From positions 2,185,860 through 2,249,859 of the forward strand of contig MU004231.1 in the NCBI GenBank assembly GCA_010405405.1: a stretch of DNA of 64,000 nucleotides, given 5' to 3'. The first letter of the stretch is position 1. Each line of letters begins with the position of its first letter. A model generated the notes under the pieces. It saw nothing but the letters and a program-made list of their open reading frames with translations. It searched no databases and was not told the origin of the DNA. This DNA is from Microthyrium microscopicum. Its lineage: Eukaryota. The translations under genes and the position numbers were made by a program. Shown here piece by piece: positions 17,583 to 20,461 of this stretch.

Positions 17583-18344
17583 TTACTCCACCGTGCCGCC
17601 TTTGCGGTAAGAGACCTTTTCGACGGCCACATTCTCTACGCCGCTATCATCCTTTTTGAGTTGGTAGACGTACAAGACTAGGACGTCTCCTTGAACCTAG
17701 AAACCAGTCAATATTGCCTTCATTTGTATGGTTGGCCGTCCACTTACATCCATAAGCACAAAGCTTGGAGTGGGATCTTCCTCCTCAGTCCACCATCCAG
17801 TAGTCATAGCTCCTGTCGCGCTTCCAGGGTTTACGAAAAATTTCCCTTCCATCTCGTATGCTTCGAATCGATGTGTGCCTCCCCATAGTAGAACATCAAC
17901 GTCCATCTGCCTTGCTGCTATCAACAAACTGTCGGCGTCACCAGGAGGTATTATAGAATGGCCATGAGTGAAGCCTATTCTGAGCGAGCCGTGCGTAACG
18001 ACTTTTGAGAGAGCAAGCGTGGGGGTTTCGGTGTCAAAGTCGCCTTTGACGACTTGAAGGTCTGGTGCGATGTTGCGAAGGAATTCGGTGGTTTCGCGGT
18101 CTGTCAAGTTGCCTAGACATAAGATCTGACCGATTTTGCCCGGAGAGAGGAGCTTTCTGAACTATAATCGTCCTATCTTAGTCTCTCAAATTATGACAGC
18201 GGAAGTATGGTGATAGTACCTTTGCAGGAATGCCCTGAAGACGCCCAATTAGCTCTGGAGACCTTCCAACTCTGTCGCTTTACTTACTGCAACCCGATCA
18301 GGTATGAACAGGTCTCCCAGACATAATACCAGCCGCGACGTCAT
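17583..18344 (-). CDS. VPS29: Retromer subunit Vps29
   Basis: MTSRLVLCLGDLFIPDR, 15-nt micro-exon 18220-18234 (GIPAK), FRKLLSPGKIGQILCLGNL, VKGDFD, THGH, FFVNPGSATGA, PSFVLMD. Confidence 0.95.
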
Positions 18345-19206
18345 CCTGATATGCTGAGCGTCTGAATTTGAAGCAACGAGTGTTTATCGAAGGTTGCCTG
18401 AAGGAAGCAGAGGTTGGAAGTTGAAGTGGTGCGGCCTCGCGACGTCAAGTGGCTTGGAGAGCTCGGCCAATGAGCAAGAGCGCCACGATGACAGGGCGCG
18501 TTCATTTCTCCTTTTTGGATTTGAAAAACGTCAACAATCTCAGGGGTACATCTCGTCAATTTTTTGGTGGTGAGCTCTTCTCTGGTACGTGATATCAAAA
18601 TCTCCCCCTCAAAATCTTTACTTCCCCTCTCAGAAGAACTAGTGACTCACAGCTTACAAGGCTCTACGGGAATAAACTCAAATTTCACACACATCGCGAA
18701 AAAACCACGATCCCGGTCATCAAGCACTATCGCTAAAGTTACACACCGCTTCACCTCGAGTTCTAAGCATCCACGCGCCGAGTCCCAATCTGCAAATCGC
18801 TCTCAACAGCAACAGCATAATCCTGCAGTCAGGCACGTAGACAAAACTCAACTTCCGAACTTCGCCGTACCCCGAGGCCGGAATCATCCTGGCTGCCATA
18901 ACCCCGCGAGCCATTTGGCGTGGAATCAATCGCCCCGCAATCCTGGCGTCCCGAGCTCGCCCACGACTGAACCTCTTTGCAAGACATCTTGCATCGAGGC
19001 CAGTCTTTGAACTCAATACACCATTTTCAATTGAACGCTCTACTTCATCCGACGACGACGCCGAGATCAGCTCCGATCAATCGAGAAGCATTCTACAACA
19101 GAAGATAAGCGACAAGAAGCCCAAAGTACCGAAAGACCCAGTCAAGGATATCGTAACAGAACTATCAAAACCTATAGCAGCGTCCGAAAAGAAGACAATC
19201 GCAAAG

Positions 19207-20461
19207 ATGTCGTTTCAAGAACCTCACCCAGCGCTTTTGATACCCGGTCCAATTGAGATTGACGATGATGTTGCAAGGACAATGGGGTTCCACAGGTATG
19301 TAATGTTAAATCTAGAATTTTCTCACTCTAACATTTGATTTAGTGAATCGCACGTTGGCATGCCGTTCGTAAACGTGTTCGGGGACACCTTGGCTCAATT
19401 ACGAAAGCTCTTCCAGACCACAGATCCTGCCTCCCAACCATTCGTCATCTCAGGTTCCGGAACACTTGGATGGGACCAGATCGCTTCAAACCTTACCGAG
19501 CCAGGTGATAAAGTCTTGGTTCTTCATACTGGATACTTCGCGGATTCTTTTGCCGACTGCTTCGCCGCATATGGTGTTGAAGCCACCCAACTCAAAGCGC
19601 CCATTGGCGAAAGTCCCTCTCCCGATGAAATTGAAAAGGCTTTGAAGGAAAACAAGTACAAGGCGGTTACGATCACACACGTTGACACTTCTACTGGAGT
19701 TCTTAGCAATCCCAAGGTCATCTCAGATCTTGTCCATCGTGTCAGCCCAGAAACCCTGGTTATTGTGGATGGCGTGTGCAGCGTGGGCTCGGAAGAGATT
19801 CGTTTTGATGACTGGGGTCTGGACGCTGTTATGACTGCCAGCCAGAAAGGTCTTGGAACGCCAGCCGGCCTCAGTGTCTTGATGGTGTCTGGACGTGCTA
19901 TAGAAACCTTCAAGTCTCGAAAATCACCACCAAACTCTTATTTTGCATCATGGAAGAACTGGCTACCAAGTAAGTGTTTTCTTCGCGCCACGTCATTCTG
20001 ACTAACACTTTGAAGTTATGCAAAACTACGAGAACAAGAAGCCATCATACTTCGCTACTCCATCACCACAATTGGTGCGAGCTCTGAACACTTCCTTGAC
20101 CAAAATTCTCGCAGTGCCATTAGAAAAGCGATTTGCCGACCACCAGGCCGCCTCTGACAAGGTCAAGAAGGCCGTTACTGCCCTGGGCTTGAAGCAGCTC
20201 GCTAGCAAGCGCGAAAACCAAGCAAATGGCATGACAGCGATTTATCTTCCAGAGGGCATGTCGCCGCCAGATGTTCTTCCTCATCTCCTGAAAAACGGAG
20301 TCATTTTTGCTGGAGGTCTTCACAAAGAGATTGCCACCAAGTACATCCGCTTTGGTCACATGGGTGTAAGCGTTACAGACACAAGCCGCAACGACATTGA
20401 CAAGGCACTTGAAGCCCTCAAGGGGGGTCTCGTTGCTGCTGGATATAAGGTACCAGAATAG
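19207..20461 (+). CDS. AGX1: Alanine-glyoxylate aminotransferase (class V PLP enzyme), AUG-initiated form
   Basis: MSFQEPHPALLIPGPIE, SGSGTLGWD, THVDTSTG, VDGVCS, TASQKG (PLP lysine), YFATP, RFGHMG; two short introns. Frame is open upstream to 18841 (see findings). Confidence 0.93.

Follow-up and report, generated by a model that had tools for sequence, protein, structure and literature searches.

Within the 64,000-nucleotide (nt) stretch of contig MU004231.1 of the Dothideomycete Microthyrium microscopicum that was analysed here (hereafter the window, with positions counted from its first letter), a gene located on the + strand between 18841 and 20461 and comprising three coding exons encodes, by homology, an Agx1-type alanine-glyoxylate aminotransferase whose open frame continues far upstream of its AUG at 19207. 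Our comparative analysis indicates that this upstream part is a translated and conserved coding sequence, and it contains a nonapeptide of the peroxisomal targeting signal type 2 (PTS2). We consider it likely that leaky scanning yields CUG-started isoforms carrying the PTS2 together with an AUG-started isoform devoid of any signal. Initiation at the CUG codons, the function of the PTS2 and the destinations of the isoforms are inferred here from sequence; the comparative evidence is strong for the non-AUG translation, good for the PTS2 and suggestive for a mitochondrial form. The general interpretation, a near-cognate extension with an organellar signal in addition to a short AUG isoform, had been put forward in an initial annotation made from the letters of the window alone, and the comparative data support it.

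The product matches the class V aminotransferase family (PF00266, Aminotran_5; 75.7 bits versus a cut-off of 21.5) over residues 120-427 of P0002, a 100% identical public record of 472 residues named 'purine catabolism protein pucG, partial [Microthyrium microscopicum]'. The closest solved structure is that of the yeast alanine-glyoxylate aminotransferase Agx1 (2bkw, E 7.7e-91); the mammalian enzyme of the same family, AGXT (1h0c), is matched with an E of 4.6e-32, and the solved relatives also comprise serine-pyruvate and ureidoglycine-glyoxylate enzymes. The SQK stretch, which carries the lysine that binds pyridoxal phosphate, is shared with 2bkw ('tasqkglg' opposite 'tasqkaig'). Since the alignment with 2bkw opens at P0002 residue 95, corresponding to residue 7 of Agx1, the product of AUG 19207 would represent the complete enzyme and everything upstream of it an addition.

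An AUG-free, conserved N-terminal extension

Directly after an in-frame TAG (18838..18840), the + frame leading into the enzyme is open from 18841 to 19338, as the initial annotation had stated. This TAG is part of a piece (18660-19293) that is unbroken in a 2888-nt contig of run X1 and that also holds the two CTG codons considered below (18889 and 18943) and AUG 19207. An AUG-started extension is therefore impossible on the spliced form observed. The contig lacks five intron-like pieces (two in the neighbouring gene and three of the GT..AG type on the + strand), from which we infer that it derives from complementary DNA (cDNA); it was used only for what contigs bridge. One of the missing pieces is a leader intron of 76 nt (GTACGT...AG, 18585..18660; contig joint 18583 to 18660, cut +1), situated upstream of the in-frame stop and overlooked in the initial annotation. 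The joints of the contig imply that the leader carries an intron and that its 5' exon extends upstream of 18584 for some tens of bases or more. A transcription start site downstream of 18889, which the initial annotation had named as fatal to its own proposal, is contradicted by the coverage of 18660-19293 without a break.

The 5' leader and extension together contain no ATG in any of the three + frames over 716 nt (18491..19206), again in agreement with what had been noticed earlier. The + strand ATGs at 18488 and 19207 are thus separated by 719 nt, the longest such spacing in the window, the next longest ATG-free spacings being 304 nt on the + strand and 475 nt on the - strand. Dinucleotide-preserving shuffles of 18491-19206 contained 5.6 ATGs on average, and none out of 5000 was ATG-free. 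The open frame is also improbable by composition, as the 122 codons upstream of ATG 19207 stayed open in 83 of 5000 shuffles (with a mean of 3.7 in-frame stops); the other two frames upstream of this ATG contain 5 and 2 stops.

A word-based protein search with the extension revealed proteins of other Dothideomycetes aligning across it, and a profile of eleven N-termini was matched in Dothideomycetes, Eurotiomycetes (Aspergillus, Penicillium, Talaromyces, Histoplasma, Blastomyces, Paracoccidioides), Lecanoromycetes and Lichinomycetes-like lichen fungi. At E ≤ 0.001 the search yielded 553 proteins, a figure that we do not take as the number of proteins with the extension, since the profile reaches into the conserved beginning of the catalytic domain. 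Of 121 database proteins that were retrieved, 105 contain a PTS2-like nonapeptide and, no more than 16 residues behind it, a second motif. The profile also retrieved 80 loci from metagenome contigs which, together with the window, amount to 57 distinct extension sequences. A subset of 42 distinct sequences comprises those with the exact NTPFS motif; this exact-motif filter had removed 19 loci carrying variant motifs and one locus without a PTS2 match, and, outside of this subset, the counts given here use all 80 loci. When screened with the regular expression [RK][LIVQ]x5[HQ][LFIA], 55 of the 57 distinct sequences retain the PTS2-like motif, which is degraded in the remaining two (L044 and L068). 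The 55 also have the second motif. Alignment of orthologous 5' regions, suggested as a check in the initial annotation, came out in its favour: the extension is conserved across several classes of Pezizomycotina, with the PTS2 in 55/57 and a CTG or ATG aligned with CTG 18889 in 39/54.

The common layout of these extensions includes a basic N-terminus, the nonapeptide R-L-x-x-[IFLM]-x-x-H-[LFI], the second motif NTP[FY]SxER 7-9 residues further on, an acidic/Lys linker of variable length, and finally a conserved Met and the string S-x-Q-x-PHPALLIPGP that opens the catalytic domain. In the 42-sequence subset, the invariant N, T, P, F, S, E and R as well as the PTS2 His are each encoded by 2 to 6 synonymous codons (e.g. 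4 for Thr, 4 for Ser and 6 for Arg, with the His split between CAT in 23 and CAC in 19), which argues for selection acting on the protein rather than on the RNA. The near-invariance of PTS2 positions 1, 2, 8 and 9 is partly built in by the selecting expression, which 2 of the 57 sequences failed. In one of these two (L044 and L068) the first Arg is replaced by His, in the other the spacing is off by one, and L068 has an altered second motif as well (NIPFSIKR); they may be paralogues or belong to lineages in which the signal is being lost.

The nonapeptide of the window, RLNLFARHL (18964..18990), had been recognized in the initial annotation, and its translation indeed fits the PTS2 consensus (R/K)(L/V/I)x5(H/Q)(L/A) given in PMC7214817 and PMC3798809. 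Counted from the two putative starts, it would occupy residues 7-15 from CUG 18943 and residues 26-34 from CUG 18889. Position 5 of the motif is always hydrophobic, being Ile in 29 of 42 sequences and Phe in the window. An AlphaFold2 run on P0002 with 87 aligned sequences yielded a confident catalytic domain (mean predicted local distance difference test, pLDDT, of 87) and a disordered extension with the exception of a single helix, weakly predicted (pLDDT about 50-60) at residues 4-14; the PTS2 corresponds to residues 6-14. The protein ends in ...GYKVPE, devoid of an S/A/C-K/R/H-L type tripeptide, so that the earlier remark on the missing type 1 signal (PTS1) was correct. Many orthologues have YKA (19 cases), KGL (14), GKA or QKA at their C-terminus, and the window protein has VPE. 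A QKA ending has been termed a putative PTS1 in the Magnaporthe enzyme AGT1 (PMC3338719). A weak PTS1 function besides the PTS2 is conceivable for such endings.

The second motif of the window, NTPFSIER (19015..19038; family NTP[FY]SxER in the alignments), follows the PTS2 after 7-9 residues. A search of the extension against Pfam matched no family, and docking of NTPFS on the catalytic domain was sought in the AlphaFold2 monomer, where the segment is not docked and has a pLDDT below 50. By this model the motif thus appears to behave as a short linear motif outside of the fold. It includes a Thr-Pro and a Ser, and a phospho-switch like the one beside the PTS2 of Gpd1 is one idea for its role. 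The remainder of the extension is the acidic/Lys-rich linker (19039..19206), variable in the alignment, predicted to be disordered (pLDDT below 50) and ATG-free in all frames.

Three nested candidate start sites

The codon favored in the initial annotation, CTG 18889, was correctly described: its context is strong (atcatcCTGgc; -3 is A, +4 is G), and it is placed 106 codons ahead of ATG 19207. As a start of the extension it is supported by its alignment with a recurrent purine-NN-CTG-GCN or ATG site in 39 of 54 sequences. A further CTG at 18943, which had been missed, is more widely conserved. We refer to the two codons as sites A and B, and to AUG 19207 as site C.

Site B (18943..18945; GCA ATC CTG GCG) is located 7 codons before the PTS2 in a context (gcaatcCTGgc) as good as that of CTG 18889. 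Among 55 sequences, the homologous codon, which precedes an Ala GCN, is a CTG 29 times, an ATG 20 times and a GTG 5 times; one sequence lacks it. Where it is not ATG, a purine occupies -3 in 34/34 cases and G occupies +4 in 33/34; the ATG contexts are looser at -3 (A in 10, G in 4 and C in 6 of 20). This choice of CTG does not reflect codon bias, since only 64 of the 474 other Leu codons of the extensions (13.5%) are CTG as opposed to 29 of 29 Leu codons at site B. Single-linkage clustering at 60% identity produced 13 groups, of which 7 are all-CTG, 3 ATG, 1 GTG and 2 mixed, one of the mixed groups combining CTG, ATG and GTG among close relatives. Aligned Met, Leu and Val residues that are always encoded by ATG, CTG and GTG in a start context constitute the signature of an initiation site. 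Judged by conservation, site B is a more widely conserved start than site A. One locus, L043, is an intron-less, cDNA-like copy with GAG as the site B codon and with an ATG 22 codons before the PTS2 that opens an unrelated acidic N-terminus; its lineage may have solved the problem in another way, for instance through an alternative first exon.

At site A (18889..18891; ATC ATC CTG GCT), a CTG (26 sequences) or ATG (13 sequences) in a start context is found 9-32 codons upstream of site B. The segment between the two CUGs of the window, AAITPRAIWRGINRPAI (18892..18942; 18 codons including the start), resembles a mitochondrial presequence in composition. Among the 39 sequences that have site A, the A-to-B segments contain no Asp or Glu in 749 residues, 16.4% Arg, and 42% Leu, Ala and Ser taken together, while Asp plus Glu amount to 4.4% in the 20 codons upstream of site A and to 16.8% in the linker. 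This change of composition at site A suggests that it is a coding boundary, with the A-to-B segment having the make-up of a mitochondrial presequence. The window conforms to this pattern, the first 39 residues from CUG 18889 being Arg-rich and acid-free (8 Arg, 0 acidic) as had been pointed out in the initial annotation.

Site C (19207..19209; gcaaagATGt) is the candidate start of the isoform without a signal. Its Met is present in at least 90% of the aligned proteins, mostly with A at -3 in the loci. Between the first start and site C, out-of-frame ATGs number only 7 in 13,083 nt (54 sequences), as compared to whole-locus densities of 5-19 per kb (typically 12-19), and the in-frame ATGs of this interval are mostly site B itself. 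From site B to site C of the 42-sequence subset, 9 ATGs were observed versus 41.8 expected in a first-order model. Upstream of the first start the ATG-free run has a median of 205 nt, and 36 of 51 sequences have a run of 150 nt or more. Such a depletion is expected if ribosomes must reach weak starts, and then the main AUG, unhindered.

A stable RNA hairpin (18965..19005) is predicted behind site B of the window; counted from the C of CUG 18943, it begins at +23. A segment of 78 nt starting with this CUG folds with -26.3 kcal/mol (z -4.27; none of 200 shuffles was as stable), and the stem-loop alone accounts for -19.8 kcal/mol in silico. For structure-assisted (START) initiation at CUG, an optimum of +23 to +26 and thresholds of -15 to -21.6 kcal/mol have been reported (PMC11165317), so that the position of the hairpin is within the optimum and its stability near the thresholds, as far as in silico folding goes. 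No downstream structure beyond chance was found at CUG 18889 (z +1.26) or at AUG 19207 (z +1.86). Over the orthologous loci, the median z of the 78 nt after site B is -0.37 for CTG, -1.22 for GTG and +0.33 for ATG; the more stable folding behind non-AUG than behind AUG sites has a one-sided Mann-Whitney p of 4e-4 (n = 34 vs 20, the sequences not being independent). Values below -2 occur in 7/29 CTG, 0/5 GTG and 0/20 ATG loci. Downstream structure at a non-AUG site B is a trend, not a rule.

The absence of a usable AUG is not peculiar to M. microscopicum: 27 of 55 distinct sequences have a stop in frame further upstream and lack any in-frame ATG ahead of the PTS2. Public protein models that contain the motifs mirror this situation. 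Out of 105 models, 52 have a Met no more than 14 residues before the PTS2, and about 50 begin there; in about half of the models the initial Met is placed 4-12 residues before the motif. At the corresponding place 46 models carry Leu or Val and lack a Met, and in 12 the first Met is missing altogether. P0002, which the initial annotation had missed, belongs to the start-less type, as it opens without a start codon at SRARPRL (window position 18949); its annotators evidently lengthened the model by homology and met no AUG. The earlier expectation that gene finders would miss the extension is hence only half true, given that this start-less partial model includes the PTS2. Other models (P0006 with 616 residues, P0014, P0095 and others) run 100-280 residues upstream of the PTS2 to reach a first Met. 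Conservation is absent from these far-upstream N-termini, which probably result from forcing an AUG start onto the models.

Proposed mechanism and its alternatives

In the mechanism that we propose, ribosomes scanning an AUG-free leader would meet three nested in-frame starts, A, B and C. A minority would initiate at CUG 18889 or, aided by context and hairpin, at CUG 18943; in M. microscopicum, the hairpin at +23 probably raises initiation at the latter codon, which probably yields an isoform with the PTS2 at its very N-terminus. With a PTS2 spanning residues 7-15, this site B product would be taken into peroxisomes by way of Pex7. The site A product would have 18 more residues, Arg-rich and acid-free, and a part of it may reach mitochondria, or also peroxisomes. 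Most ribosomes would pass both CUGs and, because no AUG lies between, start at AUG 19207, giving rise to a signal-less and presumably cytosolic enzyme like yeast Agx1. The choice of AUG, CUG or GUG made at each site by each lineage would then set the shares of the isoforms.

A more far-reaching version is conceivable, although we regard it as speculative and would not bet on it: the three nested starts would serve mitochondria, peroxisome and cytosol in a ratio tuned by lineage, and NTP[FY]SxER would be a hitherto undescribed element that accompanies the PTS2 in import. Start codon, context and downstream hairpin would determine the ratio, and the starts would have been kept through the whole history of several Pezizomycotina classes. 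The accompanying element might contact a co-receptor, be a site of processing, or serve as a proline-directed phospho-switch comparable to the serines that adjoin the PTS2 of yeast Gpd1.

Several observations weigh against the leaky-scanning mechanism. Petriv et al. reportedly arrived at a stricter PTS2 consensus with [LVIHQ] at position 5, which leaves the Phe of the window outside. Site A is missing from 15/54 sequences and lacks downstream structure in the window, and a downstream hairpin at site B is not universal even among CTG loci. The counts come from metagenome contigs of unknown, partly related organisms, hence the observations are not independent. None of the runs recorded as RNA contains the stretch; X1, one of two other runs that do, is not recorded as RNA, and its contig continues into the divergent metallophosphoesterase gene, so that it places no 5' end. 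If the ATGs at 18470 and 18488 are contained in the mRNA, they open a 154-/148-codon open reading frame (ORF) in another frame of the spliced leader, which overlaps both CUGs, ends at 19010 and would compete with them. The ATG-free stretch that starts right after 18488 would fit a transcription start downstream of that ATG. The peptide of this ORF looks of low complexity.

Arg-rich N-termini with a PTS2 can, in addition, also be read as mitochondrial presequences, and the long isoform started at CUG 18889 might carry just such a presequence, with the RLx5HL match as a by-product of composition and no peroxisomal destination. The complete lack of acidic residues in both the first 39 residues of the window protein and the A-to-B segments at large speaks for this alternative, and many orthologues contain R-x-[FY]-Y-P-S-like strings that we take to resemble presequence cleavage motifs. 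Mammalian alanine-glyoxylate aminotransferase (AGT) is mitochondrial in some species (PMC3798809, citing Danpure 1997). On the other hand, the five informative PTS2 positions are held tighter than a presequence needs, including a His in 42/42 sequences (though the selecting expression demands H or Q there). The 15 of 54 sequences without site A start at site B, shortly before the motif, and about half of the public models open with a Met 4-12 residues before it, like PTS2 proteins. Moreover, the Magnaporthe AGT1 was assigned to peroxisomes by a green fluorescent protein fusion to its C-terminal residues 340-385, the full-length fusions yielding no signal (PMC3338719). An exclusively mitochondrial extension is thus unlikely in our view. 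We find it still less probable that the extension is translated from a CUG and serves as a disordered regulatory or interaction arm without any import signal. Such a role would agree with a second motif that is as conserved as the PTS2 and belongs to no Pfam family, and with the predicted disorder outside of one helix; it is at odds with spacing and residue patterns that fit the PTS2 consensus in 55/57 sequences, with the place of the motif at the N-terminus of the site B product, and with the substrate, as glyoxylate is a peroxisomal metabolite in fungi and the Magnaporthe enzyme is peroxisomal (PMC3338719).

Two further explanations dispense with CUG initiation. In this species the extension could have ceased to be translated and be left over from an ancestral PTS2 exon that began with AUG, in which case AUG 19207 would give the sole isoform. 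The AUG is indeed absent, and initiation at CUG is usually inefficient, as illustrated by the value of ~2% given for the non-AUG start of Pgd1 (PMC7214817). Against this explanation, the frame is still open (as in only 83/5000 shuffles), every invariant residue of both motifs is preserved together with the A at -3 and the G at +4 of both CTGs, the 716 nt have acquired no ATG, and a hairpin is located where an optimum for CUG initiation has been reported. The AUG-less state also recurs in 27/55 sequences spread over at least 9 of the 13 clusters, which decay would not be expected to produce. We give this explanation very little credence. The other one supposes that an upstream AUG exon is spliced in frame in another transcript form, which would reduce the case to a mere gap of annotation. 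A real leader intron exists (18585-18660), ATGs are available at 18470 and 18488, and contigs do drop rare isoforms. In the spliced form observed, both ATGs are in another frame, which terminates at 19010, and the in-frame TAG at 18838 is within the unbroken 18660-19293; the interchange of CTG, ATG and GTG in start context would also be left unexplained. We consider this scenario hardly credible, and retain leaky scanning over nested CUG and AUG starts as the preferred explanation.

Known parallels, gene structure and neighbourhood

The proposed mechanism is already known in fungi. The 6-phosphogluconate dehydrogenase of Ustilago maydis, Pgd1, acquires a PTS2 encoded in its 5' untranslated region (UTR) through initiation at AGG AUU with an efficiency of ~2% (Kremp et al. 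2020, PMC7214817), and the aminotransferase apparently adds a second enzyme. The two cases, as far as the Pgd1 report describes its own, are similar in that a fungal metabolic enzyme has a PTS2 upstream of its annotated AUG with no in-frame AUG before it, and in that the motif is conserved in relatives; in Pgd1, the main AUG leads to a cytosolic and the minor non-AUG form to a peroxisomal protein (PMC7214817). In contrast to the tandem AGG AUU located 39 nt upstream in Pgd1, the CUGs described here are 264 and 318 nt upstream. They form two nested conserved starts that interchange with AUG and GUG across lineages, and they are accompanied by a second conserved motif and, in this species, by a downstream hairpin. 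Pgd1 has been proven by reporters (PMC7214817), whereas the aminotransferase case is proposed from sequence comparison. A term search of PMC7214817 returned 0 occurrences of aminotransferases. In the literature searched, no fungal alanine-glyoxylate aminotransferase was described as carrying a PTS2, although proteome papers or their supplements (e.g. on Penicillium chrysogenum microbodies) may list one.

Mammalian AGT has a C-terminal PTS1-type signal, and an optional mitochondrial presequence arises by alternative transcription and AUG starts. The fungal gene differs from it by an N-terminal PTS2, the lack of a PTS1 and the CUG starts; it is similar to mammalian AGXT as a member of the same family in which one gene supplies several compartments by means of an N-terminal presequence (PMC3798809, citing Danpure 1997). 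A close formal parallel is provided by the Hsp70 of watermelon, where nested in-frame starts place an organellar presequence ahead of a PTS2 (Wimmer et al. 1997, via PMC3798809). As summarized there, the shorter product exposes the PTS2 and is directed to peroxisomes, which is the same logic as that proposed for sites A and B; the differences are a plant host, a plastid presequence, AUG starts and no third, signal-less isoform (PMC3798809). With respect to initiation, the case resembles cpc-1 in the same subphylum, the Pezizomycotina (Ivanov et al. 2017, PMC5487733), where near-cognate starts are conserved in a context of A at -3 and G at +4. The CUG, AUU and ACG starts of cpc-1 are described as conserved over hundreds of millions of years, along with an extension conserved at the amino-acid level; cpc-1 differs in being a transcription factor with control by upstream ORFs and no organelle targeting (PMC5487733).

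Among the orthologous fungal enzymes, AGT1 of Magnaporthe oryzae is peroxisomal (Bhadauria et al. 2012, PMC3338719), which implies that fungi need this activity in peroxisomes. According to the same report it differs from the window protein in having 385 residues, no extension and a putative C-terminal signal ending in QKA (PMC3338719). Agx1 of Saccharomyces cerevisiae (2bkw) is likewise without an N-terminal extension.

If our interpretation is true, the aminotransferase would be the second enzyme after Pgd1 with a peroxisomal form that depends on non-AUG initiation. Predictions of the peroxisomal proteome in filamentous fungi draw on annotated models with AUG starts, and in a whole orthologue group the PTS2 is concealed in a supposed 5' UTR, included in a start-less 'partial' model or placed behind a spurious far-upstream AUG. 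This group spans lichen-forming fungi, plant pathogens and relatives of Aspergillus and Penicillium. The occurrence of CTG, ATG or GTG at one codon in close relatives amounts to a natural experiment, by which the relation between start-codon strength and organelle partitioning becomes directly testable. The finding would bear on glyoxylate and glycine metabolism, and the Magnaporthe orthologue has been reported as needed for appressorium function (PMC3338719).

Downstream of site C, the gene on the + strand consists of the remainder of coding exon 1 (19207..19295), defined by frame reading and the X1 contig; a GT..AG intron of 48 nt (19296..19343; contig joint 19293 to 19342, cut +2); coding exon 2 with the class V aminotransferase domain (19344..19969), supported by translation, Pfam and the X1 contig; a second GT..AG intron of 46 nt (19970..20015; joint 19969 to 20016); and coding exon 3 (20016..20461), which is translated up to the stop TAG at 20459-20461. 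In a different run from the same year with another organism label, X2, a 234-nt piece (19053-19286, depth 2.8) is identical to the window and a 44-nt piece (20018-20061) resembles it at 90-95%, the depth being low. This run was not used, and the identical piece may reflect carry-over between libraries rather than biology.

The divergent neighbour on the - strand (17697-18340) encodes a calcineurin-like metallophosphoesterase (PF12850), which presumably resembles Vps29. Its start codon, placed by eye near 18336, is ~150 nt away from the ATGs at 18470 and 18488. In this neighbouring gene, the X1 joint from 18163 to 18287 is occupied by 12 other letters and has non-canonical ends, possibly owing to a micro-exon or a misalignment.

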